Source of the DNA: a virus
Strand: one strand, 5' to 3'
Virus genome (UHGV): UHGV-1430915
DNA length: 64,000 nt
This document shows positions 3,045-63,191 of the stretch, in pieces. Every line of letters starts with the position of its first letter. The first letter of the stretch is position 1. Under the pieces are notes generated by a model that did not search any database, had not been told where the DNA came from, and saw only the letters and a list, made by a program, of their open reading frames with translations. A program made the position numbers and the translations under genes.

Positions 3045-3081
3045 TAATAAATAAAAAGGGGAGGGGGAGAACCCCCTCCCC
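3045..3081 (-). terminator. strong intrinsic terminator after major capsid gene
   Basis: perfect 10-bp stem GGGGAGGGGG/CCCCCTCCCC, 4-nt loop, then TTTTTATTTATT on minus strand. Confidence 0.75.
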
Positions 3082-3105
3082 ATATGGGATGAATCACCTT
3101 AGTGA

Positions 3106-4113
3106 TTAGTCACCTTTCAGAGTTGCTTTAACAACCAGCTCTGGGCGGGTGTTAACTGCCAGCATTGAAGTTTCAGATTCAATCTTCTCTTCACGCAGGT
3201 ATGCAGAGTGTTTATACCACATGTACAGTTCCTGTGCAGGGGTATTTGCTTCGTTAACATCATCTGCCGGAGCAAAGTGCAGCTGGAACATCTGATCAAT
3301 ACCCATCGGCAGGATGCGAGCCTCTTTCTTAGGAATATTGCCAGAGATATCTTCGATAAAGGTGATACCTTTATGTTCAAACACACGGTATACGCTGTCT
3401 TGACCGCCAGCACCCAGACGGCGACGCAGAGGTTCCTGAGCAGAGCCGTAATAGGTGTATGCCAGTTCTACCAGTGGGTGATGGGTAATAGCACTGAAGA
3501 ACTCCGGTGAGCACAGAGCTACAATACGATAGCCAGCTGCGTTATCGCCAGCTTGCAGCGCGATGTGCAGACGAGCCTCTTCCAGAACCTCCATAGGATC
3601 CTGATCTGCTTTTGCAGGGTCAATCTCAACAGATTTCTGTTCAACACCCCACAGAGTGTAGTAGTCATACTGACAGGTGGTGTCACCAGGTGCATAGGAT
3701 TTACCCAGAATAGCCTGGAACAGTGCTTTCTCACGCAGTGCTTCATGAGAAACACGGATACGGCGAACAACGCGGGTTACTACGTCCTGAACAGTTTTCG
3801 GAGCATCCGGGGTGAAGTAACGACGGAAGTTCTGAACATCTGCGGCAGTGATGCCTTTGTCCAGAGGGAAGAACGGGATGTTCAGGTTTTTAACCTGGGC
3901 ACGTTCACTACCAACGTAGTTACGCTCACCGCCACGACGGCGTGCCGGAATGTCGGTTACAACTTCATCAACACGCTCGATCTGAGCAATTGTTGAGGTG
4001 CCGAGACGGGTTTCGAACAGATCCATACCAGTAATCAGTCGGAATTGGCGCGGAACAAGTTCCAGAGTAGCACCTAAATCAACAATGCCAAATTCATCTT
4101 TACGAGTAATCAT
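3106..4113 (-). CDS. major capsid protein (lambda gpE-like by size and gene order)
   Basis: 335 aa; follows scaffold and decoration genes; followed by strong terminator; order terminase-portal-scaffold-decoration-capsid as in lambda. Confidence 0.7.
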   Translation of the reverse strand: MITRKDEFGIVDLGATLELVPRQFRLITGMDLFETRLGTSTIAQIERVDEVVTDIPARRRGGERNYVGSERAQVKNLNIPFFPLDKGITAADVQNFRRYFTPDAPKTVQDVVTRVVRRIRVSHEALREKALFQAILGKSYAPGDTTCQYDYYTLWGVEQKSVEIDPAKADQDPMEVLEEARLHIALQAGDNAAGYRIVALCSPEFFSAITHHPLVELAYTYYGSAQEPLRRRLGAGGQDSVYRVFEHKGITFIEDISGNIPKKEARILPMGIDQMFQLHFAPADDVNEANTPAQELYMWYKHSAYLREEKIESETSMLAVNTRPELVVKATLKGD

Positions 4114-4160: not shown

Positions 4161-4550
4161 TTACTCATCACCAAGGGTCTGGACTTGAACCTTGTTACCC
4201 AGAGCCTCAAGCTTGTCTAACACAGCCTGTGCTGCTTTAGCGCCACCAGTTGCCAGCAATTTATCCTTGGCAAAAGTAACACCACGCACAGCAACAACCA
4301 GTTTATATTTCTTTGTGCCAAGAGGTTCAGCGATATGCACTTTACCAGCGGAGTCTGGAATTAAAGCACGATCCACCAGAACGCCGTAAGCGTCTGAACC
4401 GTCCTGATTGGCAATGCTACCATCTTTGGTCACAACCGTGCCAGCGTGGTGATGCTCTGTCAGTGTAATTTCCATCTCTTTAAAATTGTAGCCAGCATCG
4501 CTAGAATCAACTTTGCCGAGCACGATATCAGAATATTGAGTGGTAATCAT
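4161..4550 (-). CDS. putative head decoration protein
   Basis: 129-aa ORF immediately upstream of major capsid gene (lambda gpD position). Confidence 0.45.
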   Translation of the reverse strand: MITTQYSDIVLGKVDSSDAGYNFKEMEITLTEHHHAGTVVTKDGSIANQDGSDAYGVLVDRALIPDSAGKVHIAEPLGTKKYKLVVAVRGVTFAKDKLLATGGAKAAQAVLDKLEALGNKVQVQTLGDE

Positions 4551-4570
4551 TTATTTCCCCCGTTAATGTC

Positions 4571-5548
4571 TTATTTGGCAGATTCTGCACGTGCACGAGC
4601 AAGTGCTTTTGCAACGTTTTCAGCAAGAACTTCTTCTGCGGATTTTGCAATATCATCCACAACAGGTTCGCCATCATTACCATGTTCAGTGGTGGCAAAC
4701 TCTTCTTTGGTTTTATGCACCTCTGCTTCCAGCTCTTTAATTTTGGCTTGAGCTTTCTCCAGCATAGCTACGATAGGTTCGTTAGCTTTTTCCAGCATGA
4801 AGTCAACCAGGGTTGCATGATCTTCTTCACCAACAAAGCTTAAAGCTTGAGCTTTAGCCAGCATTTTAGCTTTTTCAACTTCAACCTGGGCCTTGATGAT
4901 TTCTTCAGCTTTACTCTGGGTTGCTTTCAGCTCTTCTACTTGCTTCAGCAGATCCAGATACTCTTTAGTTTTGGTTACGTCCACCGGATTCTCCTCGGTA
5001 TTTGCGGATTTTGCAACATCATCCACCTCGGTAGTTTTATCCACCTCAGCAGGTTCCTGTACCGCCTTGATCAGGTTCCCTTCTTTATCGAAGAGATCAG
5101 CGGTTACTTGTTCAAAAATCTGTTGTGTTTTTAACAGACTGTACTGATCTACCACGCTAAGCTGCTTGCCTTCTTTTGCAGCTTTATGAATGGTCACGTT
5201 ATCACAACGCTCTTCCAGCCATGCAATGCAAGACTCTGCGTCAGCTTGCGCCCATTCCCAATCAGGATGCTCTTTAGCCCAAGCTTCCTCTTCAATCTCA
5301 AAACCAAGCATGTGTGCGAGTGCTTTGGCATCGTCATACCACATATCGAAGAAACGACGCAGGTATTCTTCAAAACTCAGCTCCACAGTAACTTGGCGAA
5401 GTGCCTTAACAATATCGTCTGTTAACTGCTCAGGCTGGAGATCACTCTTCATCAAAAGAGATACAGGTCTGTTGTTAGCGCTATAGCCTTGCGCCTTATG
5501 GCACAGGGCAATCCCCTTCTCTTTAATAGTGATTGTTTTTTCAGACAT
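4571..5548 (-). CDS. putative scaffolding protein
   Basis: 325 aa, E/K/A-rich predicted coiled coil; sits between portal and capsid genes. Confidence 0.5.
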   Translation of the reverse strand: MSEKTITIKEKGIALCHKAQGYSANNRPVSLLMKSDLQPEQLTDDIVKALRQVTVELSFEEYLRRFFDMWYDDAKALAHMLGFEIEEEAWAKEHPDWEWAQADAESCIAWLEERCDNVTIHKAAKEGKQLSVVDQYSLLKTQQIFEQVTADLFDKEGNLIKAVQEPAEVDKTTEVDDVAKSANTEENPVDVTKTKEYLDLLKQVEELKATQSKAEEIIKAQVEVEKAKMLAKAQALSFVGEEDHATLVDFMLEKANEPIVAMLEKAQAKIKELEAEVHKTKEEFATTEHGNDGEPVVDDIAKSAEEVLAENVAKALARARAESAK

Positions 5549-20516: not shown

Positions 20517-20723
20517 ATGAAAGATTTTCTGTTGGCAATTTTATTCATGGCAGCATGCTTTGCCTGTGGTGTCGTGTTTGCAGGTGAAACAGCGTATCTT
20601 GTAGATGTATATCGGGACAATGGTAAACGTATTTGCCTTTATGAAACAAGCCAAGGTGAGCTCTACGAGCTTGTGAAACAAGGCGAGGCTGGATCTTGTC
20701 CTCGGACTCACTTCTTCGAATAA
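20517..20723 (+). CDS. small protein with N-terminal hydrophobic or lipoprotein-like segment
   Basis: 68 aa, LLAILFMAACFACGVVFAG at N-terminus; directly downstream of endolysin. Confidence 0.45.
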   Translation: MKDFLLAILFMAACFACGVVFAGETAYLVDVYRDNGKRICLYETSQGELYELVKQGEAGSCPRTHFFE

Positions 20724-29809: not shown

Positions 29810-29837
29810 AATGGCTCACTTTGTTGGTGAGCCAGAA

Positions 29838-30311
29838 ATGGAGACAGGTATGAGTAATGTTATGATTCCTAAAAAGACATTTATTTCAGTTACTTTAGAT
29901 TTCCTATCTACTGTTCCCGGATTTAACGTTCGCACACGAAACGGTCTCCGAGCTGCACTCTTTGCTGTAGGGTTTGATTTAAAAAATATTGATGTTCTTC
30001 GTGGAAAAAACGTTCGATGCAAAAATAAGCCAACACATTATAGAAAGGCAGATGTATTTGCTGGTGTCATGCGTGCAGACTTTAGATACCCGCAAATGTA
30101 TAACGGTGTAGATATTTTAGATGTAGATAAAGCACCCGATGAGGCAATGCTTGTTCAAGATCTTCCCTATGATATCCCTGTAGAAGATCGTGTTAATGTA
30201 AGAAAGTATACAAAACAATCTGAAAAGGCTGAAGATATTCATATTGTTGATGAACCTTTCAATTTTGAAGATCTGCATCGCCTGGAAAAATTATTCGGTA
30301 TTGAAAGCTAA
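29838..30311 (+). CDS. hypothetical protein
   Basis: start moved downstream of promoter to ATG 29838 (alternative 29850). Confidence 0.5.
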   Translation: METGMSNVMIPKKTFISVTLDFLSTVPGFNVRTRNGLRAALFAVGFDLKNIDVLRGKNVRCKNKPTHYRKADVFAGVMRADFRYPQMYNGVDILDVDKAPDEAMLVQDLPYDIPVEDRVNVRKYTKQSEKAEDIHIVDEPFNFEDLHRLEKLFGIES

Positions 30312-36574: not shown

Positions 36575-37044
36575 ATATTGTCGGATACACAGAAATATCC
36601 TACACCGAAGGGCCGGGTCTCAGGACGGCCTTGTGGGTATCTGGGTGCCCACACGCTTGTCCTGGTTGCTTTAATCAAGCATTTTGGTCAAAAGATAAGG
36701 GAAGAGAATTCACCGAAGAAGATTTGCAGAGAATTTTGTCAGATTTAGACAATGAATCTATATGCGGTATTTCTTTGCTTGGTGGAGAACCTTTGGCTAC
36801 GTATAATGAGCCCGGTATTATTAAACTTATGAGGAGAATTAAGGAAAAGTTTGGTGACAAGAAAACTATTCTTGTGTATACTGGGTTCACATTTGAGCAT
36901 ATCTCTAGTGATGTTCTTGAGCTGGCTGATATCATCATTGATGGCAAGTATGTAAAAGATTTACCAACAAAGAAACCATTCCGAGGCAGCGATAACCAAA
37001 GAATGTTTAAAAAGGTAGCAGGCGGTTGGGTTCAGGTTGACTAG
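36571..37044 (+). CDS. nrdG: anaerobic RNR activating protein (radical SAM)
   Basis: CPHACPGC (Cx3Cx2C) radical-SAM cluster motif; start set at ATG 36571. Confidence 0.85.
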   Translation: MNIVGYTEISYTEGPGLRTALWVSGCPHACPGCFNQAFWSKDKGREFTEEDLQRILSDLDNESICGISLLGGEPLATYNEPGIIKLMRRIKEKFGDKKTILVYTGFTFEHISSDVLELADIIIDGKYVKDLPTKKPFRGSDNQRMFKKVAGGWVQVD

Positions 37045-42523: not shown

Positions 42524-42742
42524 AACTGTTTATACTGTTCTTAAAGAGATTGCATTCTACGCAGATCTTAGCCGGGCACCTTTATGGGAAAAGAATATGT
42601 ATTTAAAATGGTGCGTGAAATTAGGGGGGCCTTCTAATGTTTCAAGCCATGTTTATTGAAATGCTCTCTGGGGTATTACTGCTGGTAGCCATTTTAGGTG
42701 GCGCGGCGCTGATGTATAATTATCTTGAAAAAGGGGACAGTA

Positions 42743-42928
42743 ATGACAAAAAATAAATCCTTAGAACAGGCTGAAAACCTTCTCCACGAGCTGGTAAAGG
42801 AGTGGAAAGTTGAATACTCAGATTTTAATGCAAGAGAGGGGGAAGATTATTGGCCTACGGAGCGCTCAGAGGGAGAGTGGTATCAAGATTTCATAGAATG
42901 GCTATATCAGACGTGCGATGAGGGGTGA
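42743..42928 (+). CDS. hypothetical protein
   Basis: start at ATG 42743 after AAGGGG. Confidence 0.45.
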   Translation: MTKNKSLEQAENLLHELVKEWKVEYSDFNAREGEDYWPTERSEGEWYQDFIEWLYQTCDEG

Positions 42929-42930
42929 CG

Positions 42931-43386
42931 ATGTTTGTTAAATATGTAAAAACGTGCCTCAACAACCTTGGTAGAGAGCATTGGTACACACTGCTTGAAA
43001 AAGGAGAAATTTTAACAAAATCTGGAAAGATAACTTTGATACCTTTGGACGATAAAGACCCGTCACTACTTGTCATAGATGATTACGTTACAGGTGTGTC
43101 GTACGAGGTATCTGTGGAGAGGTTAATACGCAGATCTGGAGGTCCTTATGACCGAAGAGAGTATGTTTTCGATTCCGTTACAGAGAAGGAAGATCCGTCT
43201 CTAATGTTTAGGATGGTAATCAGGGATATGAAATCATCTATAAATAGGATCGTAAAGGACATTAAGGAGCCTTTTAGGGTAAAAGTTAAGAAGTTTTTTG
43301 ATTCTAAGATCAACATACTTGCAGTTGTGCTAGGCGTAATTCAACTTCTGTTAATTTTGCACTATTTTGAACTGTTGTTTAAGTAA
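42931..43386 (+). CDS. hypothetical protein with C-terminal TM segment
   Basis: ATG 42931; C-terminal ILAVVLGVIQLLLILHYF. Confidence 0.5.
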   Translation: MFVKYVKTCLNNLGREHWYTLLEKGEILTKSGKITLIPLDDKDPSLLVIDDYVTGVSYEVSVERLIRRSGGPYDRREYVFDSVTEKEDPSLMFRMVIRDMKSSINRIVKDIKEPFRVKVKKFFDSKINILAVVLGVIQLLLILHYFELLFK

Positions 43387-46635: not shown

Positions 46636-46773
46636 GGTGCTACAATGGGCATGATTAAGAAATTAGTCCCAAATGTAGAGATTGCATGCTTTGAAATTAT
46701 GTTTGCAATCGCAGTTGTAGTTAATGTGTTAGGTTACGGCTATTAATTATCAAATAATTGAGGAGACCTCTAA

Positions 46774-49788: not shown

Positions 49789-49943
49789 TAGTATAGTGAC
49801 TAACAAGAGGTGAGGAATGACTGATTTTACTGAAGCTTTAATGATGGCCTTATCTGTTTTAGCGCTATCGGTGTGTTTTGGGGCGTTATTCACATCTCTG
49901 GTTAAAGTTTTACATACCATATTCTCACCCAAGGAGCACAGTA

Positions 49944-50195
49944 ATGACGAAGATTGACTTAAATGCTGGCGACCATGTTGTTGTCAAATGCATCGGGGAT
50001 TATCTTGGATTCACAATCGGCAATACTTACGAGGCAGTGGTGGCGAAGGTTTATCATGATAAAGTCCTTAGCCTTGTATTTGACTGTGATGATGACGGAG
50101 ATGACCGCTACGTCTGTGAGGTGCTGGCACGTGACGATAGTGAAGACCAGAAATTCCTGGTTATCGAACTGAACGGTATTTTTGTAGAACGTTAA
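49944..50195 (+). CDS. hypothetical acidic protein
   Basis: start at ATG 49944 after AAGGAG; track ORF begins at 49878. Confidence 0.5.
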   Translation: MTKIDLNAGDHVVVKCIGDYLGFTIGNTYEAVVAKVYHDKVLSLVFDCDDDGDDRYVCEVLARDDSEDQKFLVIELNGIFVER

Positions 50196-51431: not shown

Positions 51432-51460
51432 TTGACACATTACCGCTCCAGTGATAATAT
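51432..51460 (+). promoter_or_regulatory. sigma70-like promoter
   Basis: TTGACA-17 nt-TAATAT; lies inside track ORF 51378..51791, whose 5' part is therefore rejected. Confidence 0.6.
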
Positions 51461-51480: not shown

Positions 51481-51582
51481 ATGGGATACACAATGAAAAC
51501 ATTGTCAGAGGTTTTGGTGGTGATCCTGATGATCATTACGTCCATAGTGGCTGTTGCCGGAATACTCACGGGTGGAACATGA
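51481..51582 (+). CDS. small hydrophobic peptide (33 aa)
   Basis: ATG after GGAGAAT downstream of promoter; single TM-like segment; stop overlaps next ATG. Confidence 0.35.
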   Translation: MGYTMKTLSEVLVVILMIITSIVAVAGILTGGT

Positions 51583-51791
51583 TAAACACACATGCATCTG
51601 AAGAGACATCCAAAGGAGTGACTATATGTCCCTTGGCTGAGCCAGTGAAAGAGGAAAACTTAGATTCTGAAGATTCTCCATCTTCGCTCCAGGTAGATCC
51701 TGAGGCTGATGACCTAACGTGGGAAGACATCGTAGACATCTGGTTCTCCATTATGCCTGAGCACGAAGAGTTCAGAGGTGGCAGACTATGA
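51579..51791 (+). CDS. hypothetical acidic protein
   Basis: in-frame 3' part of track ORF 51378..51791 starting at ATG 51579. Confidence 0.35.
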   Translation: MINTHASEETSKGVTICPLAEPVKEENLDSEDSPSSLQVDPEADDLTWEDIVDIWFSIMPEHEEFRGGRL

Positions 51792-52129: not shown

Positions 52130-54420
52130 ACACAATTAGTTGCCCGGCTAAAGTGCTGGAAGCACCCATAACATCTTCCAACTAAATTTCCTACCAACAC
52201 AGTTACTTACCCACCACACATGACTGTTTGCTTGTTTAGTGAGCAGTCATCCCTTGACATTCTTGCCTATCTTGATAAAATTAAGTTCTTCTCTTTTCTT
52301 TTACCGAGTAATTCGGGTTTTCTGTTCTCTTCGGTTTGAAGGGGTATGGAGATACACCTGAGTGAACAGGGTGAACAACCGAACCTTTAGCTATGGCATT
52401 AGCATGGCGAAGCGGACGGGTGACGAAAGAGGGGCCGGAGGACACCAGTCACTGCCATATAGTATATGGGTGATAACCTGAAGAGTCTGAATAAGTGTTT
52501 AAGTACCAGTCAGAGGAAAAGGTGAATGGTAGCCGAAGGGGGAGGGGGGTTTCTTATATCTTTAATTTGTATACTTTATATACACTTGTAAACCAATTCA
52601 ATTAGGATCTGTTTACCACACAAAGTGGATGGAGACAAATATCACCTATTAAACTTGAATTATTTATAGAAAATACCACAACACTACTTAAGTCTTTGAT
52701 TTTACACACAAATCCTACAGATATTCACCCTCCATATTTAACATACTTGTAACATATCCCATACTCTACCTGTCTGATCAATTTACCCAACTACATCCCC
52801 ATATTTTTCCTGTCTGTACTACCCCTGCCCCGCCGGGAGTCTCGTCATATCTGGCTTCCCAGCAAATATCACACCCACAAATATCATTGCCTGAAGAGGG
52901 TTTCATCCCATAATACATGCCTTACCTGAAGAGGGTTTCATACACCACGTAAATTTTTTAATTGACCTCCCCTGCCCCGCCGGAGAGGTTGGCTTTTCCC
53001 ACACAGACCTGAAGAGTCGGCCAGAAATATCTGAATAGGTCCAGTTCTGCCCTGTCATGAGCGGTAGCGACTGGAGTGCTGCCAGGCGGACGGAATGGGA
53101 ATACTTCTCATTTTTATAATAATTCTCAAATATCGAGGCAGTGAGGCAAATTAATAGGTCAGGCCGTTCACACAGTGGCACAACATTTGCAATCTATCTT
53201 GTGGGAGTGAATGAGAATACCTATCATTGTGAGAATGGTTATCATTACGGGCAATTTAACATAATACCCATTATGCGCACCACTGGCGATACATACAGGG
53301 ATTGATAACATGGGTTACTGTTTACGCACATAACAATTATATTTCTTACTATTTGTGCGGGATATAGTTAGCAACCAATAGATTAGATATTGACCTGCGG
53401 ACTTCTGACCGTCCAGACGTCTAAACGCCCACACAATAAGGGTTATACATACATTCCTGAATGTAAACAGGGCCGCAAAAATGCTACCATACCAGTTTGT
53501 AAATTTTTCATGCAGCACTTGACAAAGAGGAGAAAAACTTGTCTGACACTTTTGCCACTTTTGACACAATATGACACAATAACGGCTGTTACTATTCCAT
53601 ATCTCACTGTTTACGCATAGACTGTTTACGCCTGAATAGTTTACGCCCAAACTGTTTACACAGAGATGATAAGCCATGCCATTCGTTTGCATGAAAACAA
53701 TTAACAAGATAACAATTAACAAGTTAATAATCTTTCGCTGGCTATGCCAGGTGACTAGGTCACCCCTTCGGGCGTTTATATGACATAATATAAAAGCAGG
53801 GCAACTATTAGAAGATCTATAGTTGCCTTACTTGTTATGTCATGATTAACTAAATACAAGGCAACTATGATCTGAGTAATAGATTGCAGAAAAACTATCA
53901 CGGGGGTGATGGTTACTGCTTTTATATTATGTCGCGACTCCGTCGCGCCATGCCATTCGTTTGCATAGTTGCCTTATTGTTACAGGTAAAATAATTACAT
54001 TATTAATTATTTCTTATCTTTCTCTTAGTCATCTAATGATTCCAGTCAGTATAGTAATGTACAGTAAACATTAGACGACTAAAGATTTCTCTGTTTATGA
54101 TAACTCATCGTGATAATTTCGGGCTGTTTACGAAAAATGTTGACACCTGAGCTGATTTATGTTATGCAGTTTACACGAATAATTATTTTATGCAGGTATT
54201 AACTATTCCGTTATTCTGTGGTTGGAATAAATACTTTGCAGGCTATAGAATGGCGTGCGTACGTGAATTCTGAGATCTGGCGGCTATAGTTATACTCGAT
54301 TTTTCGCGTAGAACACGCTTTAGATGCTGTGTAAGTGTATGACTTATAAAGATTTTTAGTTGTTGACAAGATATTGGAGATGTGCATCAGGTTAAAATTT
54401 GTGCAATAGCGGCATTACGT
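52130..54420. repeat. 2.3-kb ORF-free repeat-rich region (candidate origin, terminus or regulatory hub)
   Basis: no credible ORF; cctgaagag motif x4, cccctgccccgccgg x2, ~13-bp-period tgtttacgc iterons x4, catgccattcgtttgcat x2, acaattaacaag x2, palindromes ggtgac-tag-gtcacc and cgcgac-tcc-gtcgcg, ~19-bp inverted repeat flanking 53780-53935. Confidence 0.6.
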
Positions 54421-54580
54421 GCACTTTTGGGAGAGAAAACGGGTAAAAATGGACTTGCTACCACACAATGAAAAATTATGCAATAGTTATTTTCCATGTA
54501 TATTTGTACAGTATGTGGGATTGATGGCTAGTCAATTATTCCACTTGCCAGGTAGGGCCGTTTATGGTAGGAGAAGAGCA

Positions 54581-54607
54581 GACAAAAAGAAAGGGGCCTA
54601 AGCCCCT
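54581..54607 (-). terminator. intrinsic terminator at 3' end of minus-strand small-gene block
   Basis: minus-strand stem AGGGGC/GCCCCT followed by TTTCTTTTTGTC. Confidence 0.6.
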
Positions 54608-55870: not shown

Positions 55871-56004
55871 CGGTTTTTATAGTTCTTATATGACAGGCAG
55901 GCCCGGTGATTGTCTCCCCCTGTTCCCAAGTGCCGCCCGTTTAATAAGAATAGCAAAAGGGGCCGAACAAGTCAACCCCAAAATCAGTACCAAAACACTT
56001 TTAT

Positions 56005-56316
56005 TTATACGGTCCGATCATTGGCCTTTGTCCAGGACCTGGCGATCCGTTTCCCGGTCACCTGGAACGGAGGCTGCATTGTGTGTAATGAGTCCAGAGT
56101 AAGGGAGGACCGTTTACGGCGTATCTTCAGGATCGCTAACGTATTGTCCATCTCACGGCCAGGTCCTGGGCGGTATGGTGTGCCTCCAGCGTTAAGGTTG
56201 ATGATCTCATGTATTGAGATCCGGCGTTGTTTTGCTTCCGCATCTTTGAAGATAGCCAGCGGAGGCGCTATGCGTTGCCGATACCAATCTAAAACGGTTG
56301 GCGTAATAGCGATCAT
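56005..56316 (-). CDS. hypothetical protein
   Basis: 103-aa ORF; ATGA overlap with upstream gene. Confidence 0.4.
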   Translation of the reverse strand: MIAITPTVLDWYRQRIAPPLAIFKDAEAKQRRISIHEIINLNAGGTPYRPGPGREMDNTLAILKIRRKRSSLTLDSLHTMQPPFQVTGKRIARSWTKANDRTV

Positions 56317-56504
56317 ATTTTACCCCCTATGTAGTCCGGTCGGTTTTTCTCTGTCATACGCTTAAGCAATTCTTGCATGTTGCTTATGGCTTGTAGTGTA
56401 TCCTCTTCAAGGGATGAATCAAGATAATCAGGATCATTCTTCACCTTGCAATGATTATGATAACGCAGCACCGCCAGTACTTTTTTAACTTCTTCCGCTG
56501 TCAT
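56313..56504 (-). CDS. hypothetical protein
   Basis: 63-aa ORF. Confidence 0.45.
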   Translation of the reverse strand: MTAEEVKKVLAVLRYHNHCKVKNDPDYLDSSLEEDTLQAISNMQELLKRMTEKNRPDYIGGKI

Positions 56505-56649
56505 TATCGCGCCTAAAACAATGAGTTAATATATAACACCAGATCGCTGACTACCAGGACAACATTAATCAGCACATACCTAACCATAAAGGGAAAGATC
56601 GCCAACATTGCCTCCACGATCCCCATGGTAATAATTATCTTTCTCATGG

Positions 56650-56934
56650 TTAACGGTTCACGTAAGTTTTCCCGTTTACGGTTATCGGCAGATCCTCCAG
56701 GTCTGGATCTTCTTTAAGGTCGTGAGCAAGTTCACCGCACCGAACGCCCTCGAATCCGTAGTACTCTGTCGTGCCATCCTGGAAAGTTTTAGCGGCAAGG
56801 CATAGGCGATAAGTAACACCGATTTGATTGACGGCATGGATATCAGTTAGATCTACCTCTTTTGCCAGCTCTTTGGCCATTACAGGCGCATTAAGTCCAA
56901 CAACCAGGGCAACCACTGCGATCATCTTTTTCAT
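56650..56934 (-). CDS. secreted or periplasmic protein
   Basis: N-terminal signal-peptide-like MKKMIAVVALVVGLNAPVMA. Confidence 0.55.
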   Translation of the reverse strand: MKKMIAVVALVVGLNAPVMAKELAKEVDLTDIHAVNQIGVTYRLCLAAKTFQDGTTEYYGFEGVRCGELAHDLKEDPDLEDLPITVNGKTYVNR

Positions 56935-57025
56935 TGTATCTATCCTCTTTCTGCTACGTTTAAGGCGGCGGCAACCGCCTGTTTATGCTTTGTTGGTTAA
57001 TTTTCGGGTATCGGTATAAATTAAA

Positions 57026-57241
57026 CTATACTGTACGCTCAACTATAACAACGGCTTGAGGGATCTCACCTTCCACCACTATCAAGGCTTTTTTCTGCGT
57101 AATGGATATCTTTACCCGCTTCAGCGTGGCGGTAAAGTCTTTCATTTCGTCGCGTGGTGTTTTAGTGCAATGCCAGATCTCAGGCTTACCTATTTGCAAG
57201 CCGCGTAAAAATTCTGTTTTGCCTGTTTTGTTAGTGATCAT
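57026..57241 (-). CDS. hypothetical protein
   Basis: 71-aa ORF. Confidence 0.45.
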   Translation of the reverse strand: MITNKTGKTEFLRGLQIGKPEIWHCTKTPRDEMKDFTATLKRVKISITQKKALIVVEGEIPQAVVIVERTV

Positions 57242-57250
57242 TTGCCAACC

Positions 57251-57355
57251 TCACCCGATACCGTTGGAAGACAAGATCACATTAGCCATGGTTGCAATCA
57301 GGCCAATACCTAGGGCAATAACCAGGATCACCGCATCAATTAATTTCTGTTTCAT
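57251..57355 (-). CDS. small membrane peptide (34 aa)
   Basis: not in ORF track; ATG after AGAGGAAAACAAA; MKQKLIDAVILVIALGIGLIATMANVILSSNGIG. Confidence 0.4.
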   Translation of the reverse strand: MKQKLIDAVILVIALGIGLIATMANVILSSNGIG

Positions 57356-57445
57356 TTTGTTTTCCTCTTCTTGTTCCAGGTGGCGGACCATTCCACCGCC
57401 TTATGTATTATGCTTTGTAAGATGGTTGTTTGTTTTCAAACTATT

Positions 57446-57625
57446 TTAACGATAATCATCGTACGCTTTATTAACCTGGCGAATATAACATTCAAAAGCC
57501 AGATCAATAGATTTATATTCACGGATATACTCACCATAGGAAACCACATACATTTCTATAGCTTCCTCATATGCGAGGAGAATAGAATCCAAGCCTACGA
57601 TCTCAGTCTTTGCAATAATAGCCAT
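57446..57625 (-). CDS. hypothetical protein (59 aa)
   Basis: not in ORF track (below 60 aa); leader CCACAAAGAGGATAAAAATC-ATG with upstream hairpin GGGGC-ttg-CCCC. Confidence 0.45.
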   Translation of the reverse strand: MAIIAKTEIVGLDSILLAYEEAIEMYVVSYGEYIREYKSIDLAFECYIRQVNKAYDDYR

Positions 57626-57696
57626 GATTTTTATCCTCTTTGTGGTTGGTGGGGCTTGCCCCTTTGATTTATATACTACAGTCTTATAGGGTCATG

Positions 57697-57930
57697 TCAA
57701 CTATTTTCAAAAAATTTTTCTGCTGTGATATTCTTCCCGGTCGGATTAGCTACTTTTAAAATTCTATCATGCACCGGACGCCCAAAAGAATAAGATCCGT
57801 ATACAGTAAACCAATAATCGCCGTCGGGCTGCACTATTACCGCTGCATAGGGTACGCCTTTTTCGTTATTGTTTACAAAATAGATCACATTGCCGTTAAT
57901 AGCCTCGGCGCGTTTAACTTGTTCAATCAT
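57697..57930 (-). CDS. hypothetical protein
   Basis: 77 aa; leader hairpin GGGGCC-ttttc-GGCCCC. Confidence 0.5.
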   Translation of the reverse strand: MIEQVKRAEAINGNVIYFVNNNEKGVPYAAVIVQPDGDYWFTVYGSYSFGRPVHDRILKVANPTGKNITAEKFFENS

Positions 57931-57993
57931 GATGATTTACCCCTCTTTATTTTTTTCATAATTTCAGGAGGGGCCTTTTCGGCCCCGCCAGGT

Positions 57994-58278
57994 TTATTTA
58001 TTGATGGCGTGCAACGGGAAAGGTACGCCAGGTTGATAAATAACTTTTACAACCTCATCAGGGCAAAAGAAATTGCAGAATTCTCCCCGGTAAGCTTCAT
58101 CTTCTTTTAATTCTTCGTCAACATACTCAAAAAAGTAGTCGATGCTTGGATAATCCTGGCCGGGATTATAGTCGACCATCGTTAATAGTAACTCTTGATC
58201 ATTCCGTAGGATATGCATACCCGCTTTTAAGTATTTTGCTTCCATTTCTACTACATCGCCAACGGTAACAATAGCCAT
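57994..58278 (-). CDS. hypothetical acidic protein
   Basis: 94 aa; leader hairpin GGGGGC-cg-CCCCC. Confidence 0.5.
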   Translation of the reverse strand: MAIVTVGDVVEMEAKYLKAGMHILRNDQELLLTMVDYNPGQDYPSIDYFFEYVDEELKEDEAYRGEFCNFFCPDEVVKVIYQPGVPFPLHAINK

Positions 58279-58505
58279 GGTTTTAACTCCTATCTATCCG
58301 GTTAATGATTGGGGGCCGCCCCCCTGATACGTCCTATTATCCATATTGTAGGGCTTGATGCAAGTACTTCTTTAAATTTTTTTTTTAAGCGCCTTGGGGG
58401 CCGCTGTAACGCTAAAATAATAAAGGCCATGCAACCGCATAGCCTTTATGTGATTATATCGCTTCAGGCCCTGCTAGGGGCCTTATTTTGCATCATTTGC
58501 CGGAA

Positions 58506-58805
58506 TTATTCAGAGAAAACATCGTTCACAATAGCGATCACAATGCCGCCCACCTTGTCACGGTCAACAATGCACAAATCACCATAGATCATGTGGTAGT
58601 CTGGATGATCTTTCACGGAATAGTCAATGAGCGTTTTCTTGTCGTCCAGCTTTGTAACTTCCATTCTCATAACGATACGAGAATCATCAAAGGCATTATT
58701 CCGAAAAGTCATAGCCTGACCACCAGGGCACCCAGTGATCTCCACTTCCACGCCGTCTACGATCTGACCATCAAAGAAATAAAGATTATTGGCGGGTATA
58801 AACAT
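58506..58805 (-). CDS. hypothetical protein
   Basis: start moved to ATG 58805 (MFIPANN...) because AAAGGAG RBS lies inside track N-terminus. Confidence 0.5.
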   Translation of the reverse strand: MFIPANNLYFFDGQIVDGVEVEITGCPGGQAMTFRNNAFDDSRIVMRMEVTKLDDKKTLIDYSVKDHPDYHMIYGDLCIVDRDKVGGIVIAIVNDVFSE

Positions 58806-58850
58806 GATCATTGCTCCTTTTTGCACTGATTATTTTAACAGGGTTTAAAT

Positions 58851-58894
58851 TTACTTTATTGATGGCCCTGGAGTCAAGGCCATCTAAAAATAAA
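58851..58894. repeat. 44-bp intergenic repeat, copy 1
   Basis: ttactttattGATGGCCctggagtcaaGGCCATCtaaaaataaa; 7-bp inverted repeat; TTGACT on minus strand in loop. Confidence 0.85.
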
Positions 58895-58896
58895 TT

Positions 58897-59097
58897 TTAC
58901 AGATCTACAATCTCTTTAATTCGTTTTACTGCTGCCTCAGCGCCTTGAGGGTAGAAATTATGATAACCAATCACGCGGGTAATACTGATCGCCGCTTGGT
59001 GGTCCTCGTAGTCGCCTTTGAATATTTCTTGACCATCAACCAGCACAGCAATTTTTTCTTCTTTTTTGAAGTTAATAACGCGGATATTGTTGCTCAT
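58897..59097 (-). CDS. hypothetical protein
   Basis: 66 aa; leader hairpin GGGGAG-tgt-CTCCCC. Confidence 0.5.
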   Translation of the reverse strand: MSNNIRVINFKKEEKIAVLVDGQEIFKGDYEDHQAAISITRVIGYHNFYPQGAEAAVKRIKEIVDL

Positions 59098-59242
59098 TTT
59101 GTTTCTCCTTTTGGAACTTTGTCTGTGTGGTGGGGAGTGTCTCCCCGTTGATTGTTATTATCCATATTCTGGACCGGATTGCAACATTCAGGAAGAAAAA
59201 TTTTTTGAAAAAAGTTAGGCCCCCAGGGATCGGGGGCCGTTA

Positions 59243-59362
59243 TCAGTTGCTTACAGCGATAAAATACATCCCTACGCCTAACAATATTTCAAGGGCGATG
59301 ATCTCCAGCCATACCATAACACGGCGCGCCTTATCGGTGCGGGGCTTATCCTTGGGTGTCAT
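59243..59362 (-). CDS. small membrane peptide (39 aa)
   Basis: not in ORF track; ATG after AGGAGG; C-terminal hydrophobic segment; partly overlaps another small TM ORF (59346..59471). Confidence 0.35.
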   Translation of the reverse strand: MTPKDKPRTDKARRVMVWLEIIALEILLGVGMYFIAVSN

Positions 59363-59581
59363 CGTCTCCCTCTTTCCTCCTGTTAGTAGTGACGTGGTTT
59401 ACAATGGTCCCCAGGAGTACTATCGCCACGCACATTACGAGAAAAATTATTTCTTCCGTTGTTCGGTCCATTGTTATAAAACCTCTCAAGATCAGGCCTA
59501 AAAGTAAATCTTTCGTTATTGAATCCGTCACGCCAGGCGGCTGGCTTCAAATCTTCACTAAATGGATTAATTAACGTGGCA

Positions 59582-59953
59582 TTATTTAAACGGTTGGCCC
59601 ACATATTTTCTATTCCTCTCAAATAGGCGATCCGCCTCAGTTAAACATATCTCATGGGCGTGATCTCTGGTTTTAGCTTCATCAAAAACCTGTTGTGCAA
59701 GGCTGCAACGTAGGGAGACTGGAAGATCACTATAATAGGCGTTGACAAACGTTTGAGCGTCGTACAGGTCTGAAAATACTTTACCCTTTCTATTATTCCC
59801 CTTGTCAACAATTGCAAGGATAACCAATACAATAGTTGCAACCACCCCCAGGAAAATAGATATAATAAACCATAAAAAGGCGGATCTTCCCATCTTGCCA
59901 GCGATCCAGGCGTTAAACAAGGCAACCAATATAGCCAAAATAATAAATTCCAT
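59582..59953 (-). CDS. membrane protein with two TM helices
   Basis: MEFIILAILVALFNAWIA and FLWFIISIFLGVVATIVLVILAIV then soluble C-terminal domain. Confidence 0.55.
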   Translation of the reverse strand: MEFIILAILVALFNAWIAGKMGRSAFLWFIISIFLGVVATIVLVILAIVDKGNNRKGKVFSDLYDAQTFVNAYYSDLPVSLRCSLAQQVFDEAKTRDHAHEICLTEADRLFERNRKYVGQPFK

Positions 59954-60019
59954 TCTATGTACCCTCTTACAATTCTGCGTAGCAATAAGGCGGCAAATAT
60001 GCCGCCGCCTGTTACCTGA

Positions 60020-60400
60020 TTAAAAATTATCGCCGTAAATCTTTCCGCTTTCTACCCATACCACCACGCGAGGCATACTATCCCACACGTCTTGTTTTAG
60101 ATTGAGCGCGTGCAATTCTTCGGTGGTGCTCATACCGGGCACGGGCTGATTGTATACTGCAAAACGACCACCCGCATAATCATAGGCCAGGGTTAAATCA
60201 CACTGGATCATCTTTTTGATCATGGCATTAAGCATGGCGTTAGCCGCATATTGATCACGTTTTAAAGGCAACTCTTTGATTAGTTTGCGATAGTTTTCGA
60301 TATGGTCGCACACTGTTTCACGAGGAAGATCTTTCATATCTTCACGGAATGTAACCAGGTTAAACATAACGGTGTCAATAGCCTTGGTAGTGTTTTTCAT
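60020..60400 (-). CDS. hypothetical protein
   Basis: start set at ATG 60400 after CAAAGAGGAAAACATC; leader hairpin 60422-60441. Confidence 0.5.
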   Translation of the reverse strand: MKNTTKAIDTVMFNLVTFREDMKDLPRETVCDHIENYRKLIKELPLKRDQYAANAMLNAMIKKMIQCDLTLAYDYAGGRFAVYNQPVPGMSTTEELHALNLKQDVWDSMPRVVVWVESGKIYGDNF

Positions 60401-60489
60401 GATGTTTTCCTCTTTGTTTTGTGTGGGGCAAGTCATCTCGCCCCTTGAGTTTTAATATAGCAGGTTTTTAGATTATTGCAACACTTTAT

Positions 60490-61113
60490 TTATGAAAAAC
60501 TCATCTCCCCATATTCATCCACATCAAACCGCCAATCATTGGCTTCAATAAGGCCGATCAGGTTTTCGGTAGTAAACTGTTCAAGATAGGCCCCCTCCAG
60601 GTCTACGTAAACCTTGCGGGATAGCTCCCGTACCGTCTCGGTGATCAGCTCTTCCAGCTCTTCAACTTTATCCTCTTGCTTGGTGGTCAGGTCTAGCCAA
60701 TTAGTATCGATGCACCCTCCTATTGTGTTTTCGTGGTGATAATGGCTAAACGGGATACGTTCAACACTAGCTGATAACTCGCCATCGTGCATTGTGCCGA
60801 ACAAGTGACGAATTGATCGGAACTTGGTCAGGGCCTTGACTTTACGCAAGAATTTTTCTAAATCCACGTTTTCAGCACTGATTGACGCGCCATCGCCTTG
60901 ACACCAAAAGCCGGACCAACGTACTTCGGTATCTTCAAGGCCGTACTCTGGAAAGACATATTCTTTATAGTGTTCAATTACGCTTTCTGCAAAAAAATTA
61001 TCCCCGCTGTGTTCTTCTCTTTCGCGTACCATTTCAATGGCTTTTTCTTTTTGTTCGTCGGTCAGCACGTCGAAAGATAAATTGTAACCTGTGGTAATGT
61101 TAACGGTGGTCAT
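60490..61113 (-). CDS. hypothetical acidic protein
   Basis: 207 aa; own promoter and leader hairpin. Confidence 0.55.
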   Translation of the reverse strand: MTTVNITTGYNLSFDVLTDEQKEKAIEMVREREEHSGDNFFAESVIEHYKEYVFPEYGLEDTEVRWSGFWCQGDGASISAENVDLEKFLRKVKALTKFRSIRHLFGTMHDGELSASVERIPFSHYHHENTIGGCIDTNWLDLTTKQEDKVEELEELITETVRELSRKVYVDLEGAYLEQFTTENLIGLIEANDWRFDVDEYGEMSFS

Positions 61114-61130
61114 GATATTTTCTCCTGTTT

Positions 61131-61149
61131 TCTTTGTTAGTGGCGGGAA
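61131..61149 (-). promoter_or_regulatory. conserved 5'-leader hairpin GGCGGGAA-N4-TTCCCGCC
   Basis: perfect 7-8 bp stem just downstream of predicted transcription start; near-identical copy at 63661-63679, partial copy at 62983-62995. Confidence 0.5.
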
Positions 61150-61159
61150 GTTTTCCCGC

Positions 61160-61187
61160 CTGTGTGTTTAATTATACTTATTGAGAT
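61160..61187 (-). promoter_or_regulatory. sigma70-like promoter
   Basis: minus strand TTGACA-16 nt-TATAAT. Confidence 0.65.
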
Positions 61188-61448
61188 TTACTTGTCAACA
61201 CTATTTTTTAAATTATTGTGGCGCAAAATGTTTAAAATCTCTTCAACGTCATCAACACGGCGGCAATTTTTAAACGCTACCAATTGCCCCATGATTTTAA
61301 TCACTGGGCGGCCTTGCCAGTGCCCTTGGAGAAAGCGCGCCTTGACTTTATCGGTGGAACTATCACGCCACCAAATAGCCTTGTTGTTGCAGTAGTAAAA
61401 ATTATTCAGGATAACATCAACTTTATCAAAATTTTTTAATTTACGCAT
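61188..61448 (-). CDS. hypothetical protein
   Basis: 86-aa ORF with promoter at 61481-61509. Confidence 0.5.
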   Translation of the reverse strand: MRKLKNFDKVDVILNNFYYCNNKAIWWRDSSTDKVKARFLQGHWQGRPVIKIMGQLVAFKNCRRVDDVEEILNILRHNNLKNSVDK

Positions 61449-61480
61449 GGCGTTTACTCCTTCCTCTCTTTGATGTGGTT

Positions 61481-61509
61481 AGTATAGCTAACCTGTTGAC
61501 GATGTCAAT
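61481..61509 (-). promoter_or_regulatory. sigma70-like promoter
   Basis: minus strand TTGACA-17 nt-TATACT. Confidence 0.6.
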
Positions 61510-61666
61510 GATATTTTTAACGCCATAAAACGGCCCTGGGCGATGTTTTCAGGTTAAAGGGGGCGATTGCATAGGCGGGGGCCTTTTTGGCGCTTACAGG
61601 GCCAACCAGGGGCGCTATTCGTAGGATAGAAATAAAAAGCCCCGCACAATGGCGGGGCGTTGGTTG

Positions 61667-61864
61667 TTATTTGTCTTTATGGCGGTATCGTTCTGCCTGT
61701 CGTTCACGTTCCAAAAGTAGGCCGGGCAATTTACGATCATAATGATTACGCCAGATCTTCCCAAACCTTTTTGGCTTATTCAGTTTATTGTTACGCTGGC
61801 GGCGTTCTGGCAGCTCTTCGGAATCATGAGGGCGCTTTACAATTTTCTCGAAATTAATTTTCAT
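61667..61864 (-). CDS. small highly basic protein
   Basis: start set at ATG 61864 after GGGGG; Arg/Lys-rich. Confidence 0.5.
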   Translation of the reverse strand: MKINFEKIVKRPHDSEELPERRQRNNKLNKPKRFGKIWRNHYDRKLPGLLLERERQAERYRHKDK

Positions 61865-63036: not shown

Positions 63037-63191
63037 TTAAAAATTTAAGAAAAATTTTGCAAAACTGTTGGCGCTACTCATTAACATTTGCGCCAGGATG
63101 TAACCGACAACGCAAACGATAATAGTTACCTTTGTGTATTGGCGTGTAGTGCTCATCTTAAAGCCCCCTTTTTCGCTTAACTGAGATTAGT

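Follow-up and report, generated by a model that had tools for sequence, protein, structure and literature searches.

Are the short hydrophobic open reading frames (ORFs) of the virus genome UHGV-1430915 genes, which of them are new, and what might their products do? The question is raised by four ORFs in the 64,000 nt stretch of this genome analysed here (the window), i.e. ORF A (57251-57355, minus strand, peptide MKQKLIDAVILVIALGIGLIATMANVILSSNGIG), ORF B (59243-59362, minus strand, peptide MTPKDKPRTDKARRVMVWLEIIALEILLGVGMYFIAVSN), ORF C (59346-59471, minus strand, peptide MDRTTEEIIFLVMCVAIVLLGTIVNHVTTNRRKEGDDDTQG) and ORF D (51481-51582, plus strand, peptide MGYTMKTLSEVLVVILMIITSIVAVAGILTGGT). 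A previous sequence-only reading had described them as unannotated membrane peptides with Shine-Dalgarno (SD) sequences at correct spacing, and had considered a role as holins or antiholins. All four were recovered at these coordinates when the window was re-read, each with a single hydrophobic helix (one 17-residue window, Kyte-Doolittle mean 2.4-3.2), and ORFs B and C do overlap in different frames, sharing 17 nt. We conclude that A, B and D are almost certainly genes, encoding hypothetical proteins that are catalogued and not new. ORF C is the new item and, judging from its pattern of substitutions, probably a translated, functional gene.

The 8 kb of the window around the ORFs show 96 % identity to Escherichia phage RudolfGeigy and 93-95 % identity to about 100 other Vequintavirus genomes, by which the source phage is a Vequintavirus, i.e. 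an rV5-like Escherichia coli myovirus.

Three catalogued genes and one new candidate

The description as unannotated turned out to hold for ORF C only, ORFs A, B and D being annotated coding sequences in many GenBank relatives, members of PHROG families and represented in protein databases. Together with ORF73, the annotated gene in which ORF C is nested, they match these families over their full length (E 2e-19 to 3e-48), and the position and neighbours of all four are the same as in the phages rV5, RudolfGeigy, JES2013 and magaca. ORF A matches phrog_14631 at residues 1-34 of 34 (E 1.8e-22), ORF B matches phrog_13629 at residues 1-39 of 39 (E 7e-32) and residues 5-33 of ORF D match phrog_34195 at 1-29 of 29 (E 1.7e-19); all three are plain members of their family without any difference, and ORF C belongs to none. 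In the searches of protein collections, a 46-aa long form was the query for ORF A and a 40-aa variant that for ORF B. The ratio of non-synonymous to synonymous polymorphism (pN/pS) across A, B and D is 0.14-0.22, i.e. purifying selection. Annotation is patchy, with ORF A absent from the records of naam, ESCO5 and muut, and ORF D absent from several records.

As to the SD sequences, their duplex energies with the anti-SD are ordinary for this phage (A -6.0, B -10.3, C -7.0 and D -5.2 or -6.4 kcal/mol, the median being -6.8 over the window's 77 long genes and -2.4 over all ATGs). The claim of correct spacing fared less well, since the spacing of ORF C is long (10 nt) and the GGAG of ORF D lies 3 nt from the ATG at 51481. 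A filter for a helix plus an SD was passed by six window ORFs of 25-60 aa, compared with 1.1 +/- 1.1 in 40 dinucleotide shuffles. Half of these six are ORFs A, B and C, while at least two look spurious, i.e. an antisense ORF at 29816-29935 and the ORF at 36854-36955; therefore, passing the filter alone is no proof of a gene. About a dozen further small helix ORFs lie on the coding strands of the window, so that single-helix micro-proteins are ordinary in this phage. For A, B and D, the proposal of small membrane-peptide genes is borne out by conservation and by the pattern of substitutions, and for ORF C it is moderately supported. The former three end in 2-13 uncharged residues, and a charged tail is found only in C.

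Further ORFs of 31-68 aa with one helix and a good SD were seen at 20517-20723, 42637-42756, 43228-43386, 46651-46746 and 49817-49957 (plus strand) and at 63037-63156 (minus strand). Another 44-aa hydrophobic ORF (56513-56647, minus strand, MRKIIITMGIVEAMLAIFPFMVRYVLINVVLVVSDLVLYINSLF) has a weak SD (-2.4 kcal/mol), begins 2 nt past the stop of a 94-aa signal-peptide protein, matches phrog_16005 over its full length and is annotated in RudolfGeigy, rV5 and JES2013.

ORF C, a candidate gene nested in ORF73

ORF C encodes 41 aa, of which the N-terminus is acidic, residues 8-24 form the helix and RRK follows it. Within the 3' tail of ORF73 (59383-59604, minus strand; phrog_12060; rV5 ORF182) it occupies the +1 frame, and it runs on for 17 nt into the start of ORF B. 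Neither a PHROG family nor a candidate among 5.8 billion proteins was found for it, and in every annotated relative inspected the stretch is either given to a 73- or 81-aa ORF73 in the other frame or left blank. Gene callers forbid long overlaps on the same strand, a blind spot that ORF C exposes. By tblastn, at least 85 % of ORF C is covered in all 119 GenBank Vequintavirus records holding the locus. The frame is intact in 26 of 26 aligned genomes, as 41 aa in 24 and as 37 aa in two, the shorter form arising from an indel of 1 nt in the SD of ORF B, a purine run.

The selected frame switches at the ATG of ORF C. Before this ATG, where the N-terminal 45 or so residues of ORF73 are conserved, the ORF73 frame has a pN/pS of 0.29 and the C frame one of 1.30; beyond it, the lowest value belongs to the C frame (0.50), with 1.04 for the ORF73 frame and 0.77 for the third. 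Because plain pN/pS is biased in overlaps, we used an overlap-aware estimate of the ratio of non-synonymous to synonymous substitution rates (dN/dS), which, like OLGenie, classes sites by what a change does to each of the two frames. It gave 0.45 for ORF C (dNN/dNS; bootstrap 95 % confidence interval (CI) 0.20-0.92, P(>=1) = 0.011; 28 codons, 26 genomes) and no detectable constraint for the ORF73 tail (dNN/dSN 0.79, CI 0.32-2.13). This tail is of low complexity (N, G, R, D, S), radically different between genomes and closed by either of two stops (73 or 81 aa). Moreover, the 15 nt before the ORF C ATG are invariant, five ORF73 third positions included, and the ATG itself is kept in 27 of 27 sequences, even though its loss by AAT to AAC would leave the ORF73 protein unchanged.

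An independent test, which comes from a single contig, also supports ORF C. The sole distant homologue of ORF73 among 1.84 billion representatives is P0043 (54 % identity over residues 1-55), in which the N-terminal region of ORF73 alone is recognisable. On its contig, L150 (Logan SRR23924973), DNA similarity to Vequintavirus stops right at the start of ORF C, and the AATGGA site is retained and starts a peptide in the +1 frame, MEDKAQIAILMISVVIEMIAVVAAYYKKK, that has the layout of ORF C, i.e. an acidic N-terminus, a helix and basic residues (KKK) after it. In the window, only 0.7 % of the ATGs begin an ORF that is 28 codons or longer and has a helix as hydrophobic. The variant was not found in GenBank phages or in IMG/VR. 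ORF C shows what marks an overprinted gene, i.e. a real enclosing gene (ORF73), purifying selection and a conserved start and type of product, the last in one contig.

The divergent B/C unit of L150 (2582-3170) has a membrane protein of 92-95 aa with one helix, not two, and its ORF73 homologue of 102 aa ends at an ATGA overlap with the next gene. On the opposite strand of this contig, a 27-aa hydrophobic ORF (3054-3137) without SD is probably a mirror image of the NAN-rich tail.

The strongest alternative is that ORF C is no gene, its frame being open by descent and composition, with the 73-81-aa ORF73 as the sole product and A, B and D as ordinary genes. A number of results favour it and weigh against translation of ORF C. 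The C frame stays stop-free in 43-56 % of random relocations of the substitutions, so that its openness is not significant. Parsimony changes at its codon positions 1/2/3 (16/21/33, p = 0.04) give a modest signal within the genus, and retention of hydrophobicity, with each derived allele counted once, reaches p = 0.08 on the mean and 0.02 on the minimum. A simulation that relocated events had given 0/2000 and 0/3000, and was set aside because it is inflated by homoplasy and recombination, Fitch events not being independent. Codon usage is more gene-like in the ORF73 tail (log-odds 0.27 versus 0.04 for ORF C); the score is also low for the well-supported ORF D, and with no separation between C and the ORF73 tail, codon usage does not discriminate. 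ORF C has never been reported by any gene caller, the long spacing of its SD has been mentioned, ribosomes translating ORF73 would cross its start, and its C-terminal RRKEG is the coding image of the ORF B SD. In the literature, we found no Vequintavirus transcriptome, ribosome profiling or infected-cell proteome for any of the four ORFs. Finally, one contig, L151 (Logan ERR4191866, 1501-1758), has G4 instead of G5 in CTCCTGGGGGCC, by which ORF C is truncated at 23 aa; the shortened run is probably a homopolymer error, but could be a real variant. We nevertheless regard the absence of a gene as unlikely, given that the CI of the overlap-aware dN/dS lies below 1 with the ORF73 tail unconstrained, that constraint changes frame exactly at the ATG of ORF C while the ORF73 stop varies, and that L150 keeps ATG and helix where DNA homology is lost.

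A programmed +1 frameshift, which would join ORF73 and ORF C into one protein with a 45-aa cytoplasmic domain and a C-terminal membrane anchor, would account for the passage of constraint from one frame to the other, for the 25 codons upstream of the ATG over which the C frame is open in all genomes, for the TTTT run preceding the ATG and for the natural fusion of both frames in L151 (85-aa P0042), but is very improbable, as no known +1 signal such as a slow or stop codon occupying the A site is present, the C frame shows no constraint before the ATG, the ATG is kept and preceded by an SD-like GAGG, and the frames of the L151 fusion meet within the helix, part of which is lost. A 61-aa, GTG-extended form of ORF C was likewise rejected (SD absent, -0.2 kcal/mol; no constraint on the upstream C frame).

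A separate nested gene is thus the reading that we retain for ORF C, and the two frames can be separated genetically: ATG to ACG abolishes ORF C without changing the ORF73 protein, while TCG to TAG in rV5 truncates ORF73 and is silent (Arg) in ORF C. With ORF C, a genus of therapeutic phages that is well sampled offers a specific case of a conserved overlapping micro-gene that lends itself to testing.

Gene organisation around the four ORFs

ORFs C and B lie at the end of a unit that likely starts at a sigma70-type promoter (60454-60481, minus strand; TTGCAA-16-TATATT with TG), which is followed by a GC hairpin at 60425-60444. The first gene of the unit encodes 126 aa (60020-60400, minus strand; phrog_7352), with a weak hairpin downstream, followed by a gene for a 123-aa protein with two predicted N-terminal helices (59582-59953, minus strand; phrog_13090). 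The last 23 nt of the 123-aa gene are shared with the start of ORF73, and the last 17 nt of C with that of ORF B. An intrinsic terminator (59218-59238, minus strand; 8-bp stem with 7 GC pairs, T run) stands directly 3' of ORF B; its conservation includes compensating variants, and the Murica record lists it as a terminator.

BASEL records call the 123-aa protein a 'putative holin', other records a 'membrane protein'. The BASEL label is the product of a generic screen for transmembrane helices (PMC8594841), and no holin family was matched in Pfam or NCBIfam. AlphaFold, run without an alignment, gave an all-helical model of low confidence (pLDDT 70, pTM 0.33). As the query of the IMG/VR locus search, this protein returned two loci only, and a metagenome scan with the GC-rich 18-mer GAAGCCAGCCGCCTGGCG returned mostly unrelated soil contigs and one new relative, L127.

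ORF B (39 aa) has a basic N-terminus, with six basic residues before the helix, and the strongest SD of the four. Its helix, VWLEIIALEILLGVGMYFIA, two Glu included, is invariant across 26 genomes, in the alignment of which changes at codon positions 1/2/3 number 8/11/32 (p = 4e-5; pN/pS 0.16). It is annotated in most relatives, present in protein databases and the last gene before the terminator; it was found only in contigs of Vequintavirus size and is absent from L150. By the positive-inside rule, B is predicted to be N-in and C to be N-out/C-in.

ORF A encodes a 34-aa single-pass peptide with N-terminal MKQK, a helix at about residues 5-28 and a conserved C-terminal ATMANxILSSxGIG. It is annotated in RudolfGeigy, JES2013, magaca and others, and as a 46-aa form in rV5, B9-1 and Phage 206. 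This long form (rV5 ORF173) was rejected as the conserved product, since its ATG occurs in one of three upstream contexts only, which makes the 34-aa call the right one. Two alleles of equal length, MKQKLIDAVILVIALGIGLIATMANVILSSNGIG and MLEKIFTVVVVGLALSVGVVATMANMILSSHGIG, share 53 % identity; their N-terminal halves have diverged and are still hydrophobic, the C-terminal motif is common to both, and pN/pS within the types is 0.22 and 0.21. ORF A is present in Vequintavirus as well as in Phapecoctavirus ESCO5 and Justusliebigvirus muut, i.e. in two phage subfamilies. In the latter two phages, which belong to the Stephanstirmvirinae, an intact type-2 ORF A, MLEKIFTVVIVGLALSVGLVATMANMILSSHGIG, is unannotated (L009 at about 4470-4580 and L010 at about 4275-4380, respectively), an annotation gap of about 200 nt in RefSeq holding it with its promoter, hairpin and SD.

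A 71-aa gene (57026-57241, minus strand; phrog_5988) directly follows ORF A in every genome, and the stop of ORF A lies inside the SD of this gene (GGGTGAGGT), 9 nt upstream of its ATG. The sequence upstream of ORF A has three unrelated forms, behind each of which the pair is kept together. Therefore, ORF A and the 71-aa gene form a mobile two-gene module.

On the plus strand, ORF D is the first ORF downstream of a sigma70-type promoter (51432-51460, plus strand; TTGACA-17-TAATAT with TG). Its core comprises 29 aa (51493-51582, plus strand; MKTLSEVLVVILMIITSIVAVAGILTGGT), and a start at the alternative ATG further upstream, at 51481, would extend it to 33 aa. All seven aligned relatives have the ATG at 51493, and the most divergent of them lacks the upstream ATG and has a good SD 9 nt before the second one. 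With a pN/pS of 0.14, ORF D was found in 114 GenBank records, only a part of which annotate it. At its 3' end, an ATGA combines its stop with the start codon of the gene for a 70-aa acidic protein (51579-51791, plus strand). From these arrangements, i.e. the stop of A in the SD of the 71-aa gene, the ATGA of D and the overlapped C-B unit, each peptide is predicted to be translationally linked to a neighbouring gene.

A dispensable block of early-type genes

From about 54.6 kb to its end, the window carries minus-strand genes, mostly of less than 130 aa, with strong sigma70-type promoters and intrinsic terminators scattered among them (45 promoter-like sites versus 33 expected, and 29 terminator-like sites versus 13 expected). 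Its rV5 equivalent is the transcription unit of genes 10-1-238-164 (PMC3606486). ORFs A, B and C, with ORF73, correspond to rV5 ORF173 and ORF181-183, within the leftward unit of genes 164-238. The spanins adjoin the terminase, and blocks like this one are taken to be the early region in related genera (PMC7344957); the lysin of rV5 is gp89 and its sole proposed holin candidate gp129 (PMC3606486). By the type of its promoters, the block of tiny genes to which the four peptides belong appears to be early-type, i.e. transcribed by the host RNA polymerase with sigma70.

The deposited genome of rV5_ev146 (LR699804), a derivative of rV5, has no equivalent of window positions 55911-61719 (L160 2662-2674). 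About 5.8 kb of the early-type block are missing, with roughly 20 small genes including A, B, C, ORF73 and the 123-aa gene; ORF D is outside the deletion. Since rV5_ev146 lacks their block, these genes are dispensable for propagation, and its genome is a ready-made catalogue of dispensable genes.

The DNA of both modules had no match among 5,426 complete E. coli genomes, and the modules are therefore not derived from a prophage or the host at that sensitivity. An Rfam search of 50-64 kb returned no RNA family.

An order of sigma70 promoter, short GC-rich hairpin, SD and gene recurs in the window at 60425-60481 and 57651-57700, and upstream of ORF A in L007, L009 and L010, with GGGGCGAGATGACTTGCCCC and GGGGCAAGCCCC as examples. 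The hairpin sequence varies between genomes and the layout is kept; such 5' hairpins may stabilise early mRNAs.

Possible functions of the peptides

On balance, we lean towards an account in which all four ORFs are real membrane-peptide genes whose products would be accessory early modulators without a part in lysis. The peptides would insert into the host inner membrane as single-pass proteins of 29-41 residues and, by a mechanism that we propose tentatively and by analogy, may modulate larger membrane proteins of the host or the phage through helix-helix contacts. The opposite topologies predicted for B and C would allow an antiparallel pair beside the 123-aa protein, and all would be accessory early genes, dispensable for plaque growth. 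The early-type promoters, the coupling to neighbouring genes, the invariant B helix with its polar residues and the conserved membrane-face motif of A suggest such modulators. Against this stands that no Pfam or NCBIfam family, those of holins, type I toxins and Imm included, was matched by the peptides or their neighbours.

It is tempting to speculate further that ORF C is a young gene which arose by overprinting of the dispensable ORF73 tail, and that C, B and the 123-aa protein form an early inner-membrane complex manipulating a function of the host envelope, e.g. by blocking a membrane-based defence or excluding competitors. Expression of C would then depend on initiation inside a translated gene. 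Taken as a whole, this is rather doubtful; if true, large double-stranded DNA phages would hide functional overlapped micro-genes absent from every annotation pipeline and protein database.

Instead of modulators with specific partners, the peptides could be membrane-active effectors that depolarise or perturb the membrane during host shut-off, like type I toxins, or exclude superinfecting phages, like T4 Imm or HK97 gp15. Their size, single helix and charged flanks resemble such toxins and exclusion proteins, the promoters are early-type and the genes dispensable, and between the window and L150 ORF C keeps only hydrophobicity and charge layout, as fits a generic membrane effect. We nonetheless consider effectors of this kind quite unlikely. 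None of the peptides matched the Hok, Ldr, TisB, Ibs or Fst profiles, Imm_superinfect was not among the Pfam hits even at E <= 10, and no antisense-RNA partner is evident, the promoter-like sites on the opposite strand being weak ones only. Furthermore, the invariant B helix with two buried Glu and the membrane-face motif of A point to specific contacts.

The holin or antiholin role that the sequence-only reading had considered did not hold up. Characterised holins have about 60 aa or more and a highly charged cytoplasmic C-terminal domain. A part in lysis timing together with the 123-aa 'putative holin' would fit that label, the small helical membrane proteins and the charged C-terminus of ORF C. 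The label, however, rests on the helix screen only, the sole holin-profile hit (ORF D against TIGR01598) reached 12.6 bits where the cut-off is 39.7, the peptides are very short, and gp89, gp129 and the spanins are encoded elsewhere, the sigma70 promoters of the block being typical of an early region. Moreover, rV5_ev146 lacks the block, 123-aa gene included. Control of lysis by the peptides is therefore unlikely, and their working with the 123-aa protein as holins or antiholins is highly improbable.

Comparison with known systems

Genes for small membrane proteins that are overprinted on the same strand are known from phages, i.e. MS2 L, the single-gene lysis proteins of single-stranded RNA phages and phiX174 E. 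Like these, ORF C is a short helix ORF nested in an alternative frame, the sequence of which changes fast while hydrophobicity and position are kept. In contrast to them, it is found in a 137-kb double-stranded DNA myovirus with ample coding space, in a dispensable early-type unit and with no support for lysis activity.

Bacteria use small membrane proteins such as AcrZ, MgtS, MgrB, SgrT and YohP as regulators (PMC12648545), and the product of T4 ac is assumed to act on AcrAB-TolC (PMC13250531). The peptides described here are likewise below 50 aa, with a single helix and no catalytic domain. Those regulators act by binding larger membrane proteins, which is extended to the present peptides by analogy; there is no sequence similarity, and the resemblance is one of kind only. 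Type I toxins share size and single helix, and ORF C also the charged tail after the helix, but the peptides match none of their profiles, have no evident antisense RNA gene and are part of polycistronic phage units coupled to their neighbours. With holins and antiholins they share being small phage membrane proteins, from which they differ by their much shorter length, the dispensability of A, B and C for propagation and the lack of a lysis-cassette or late-promoter context and of a profile match.

ORFs A, B and D exemplify the single-helix micro-proteins of rV5-like phages, which have a dozen or more of them, with annotation that is inconsistent from record to record. Should such peptides turn out to act on host membrane proteins, their small size and ease of synthesis would make them leads for the study of envelope functions.

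Other features of the window

A cluster of seven tRNA genes lies at 10346-11157 (minus strand); one of them (10590-10688, 99 nt) was given a four-base anticodon (atcc) by ARAGORN, without an amino-acid assignment. Between the convergent plus- and minus-strand units, about 2.4 kb (approximately 52200-54600) are without a sizeable conserved ORF and match the 'non-coding' box of the rV5 map (PMC3606486); this part might serve as an origin or for regulation. Short tandem repeats are found there at 53544-53731, e.g. ACTGTTTACGCCTAG in 3.6 copies.

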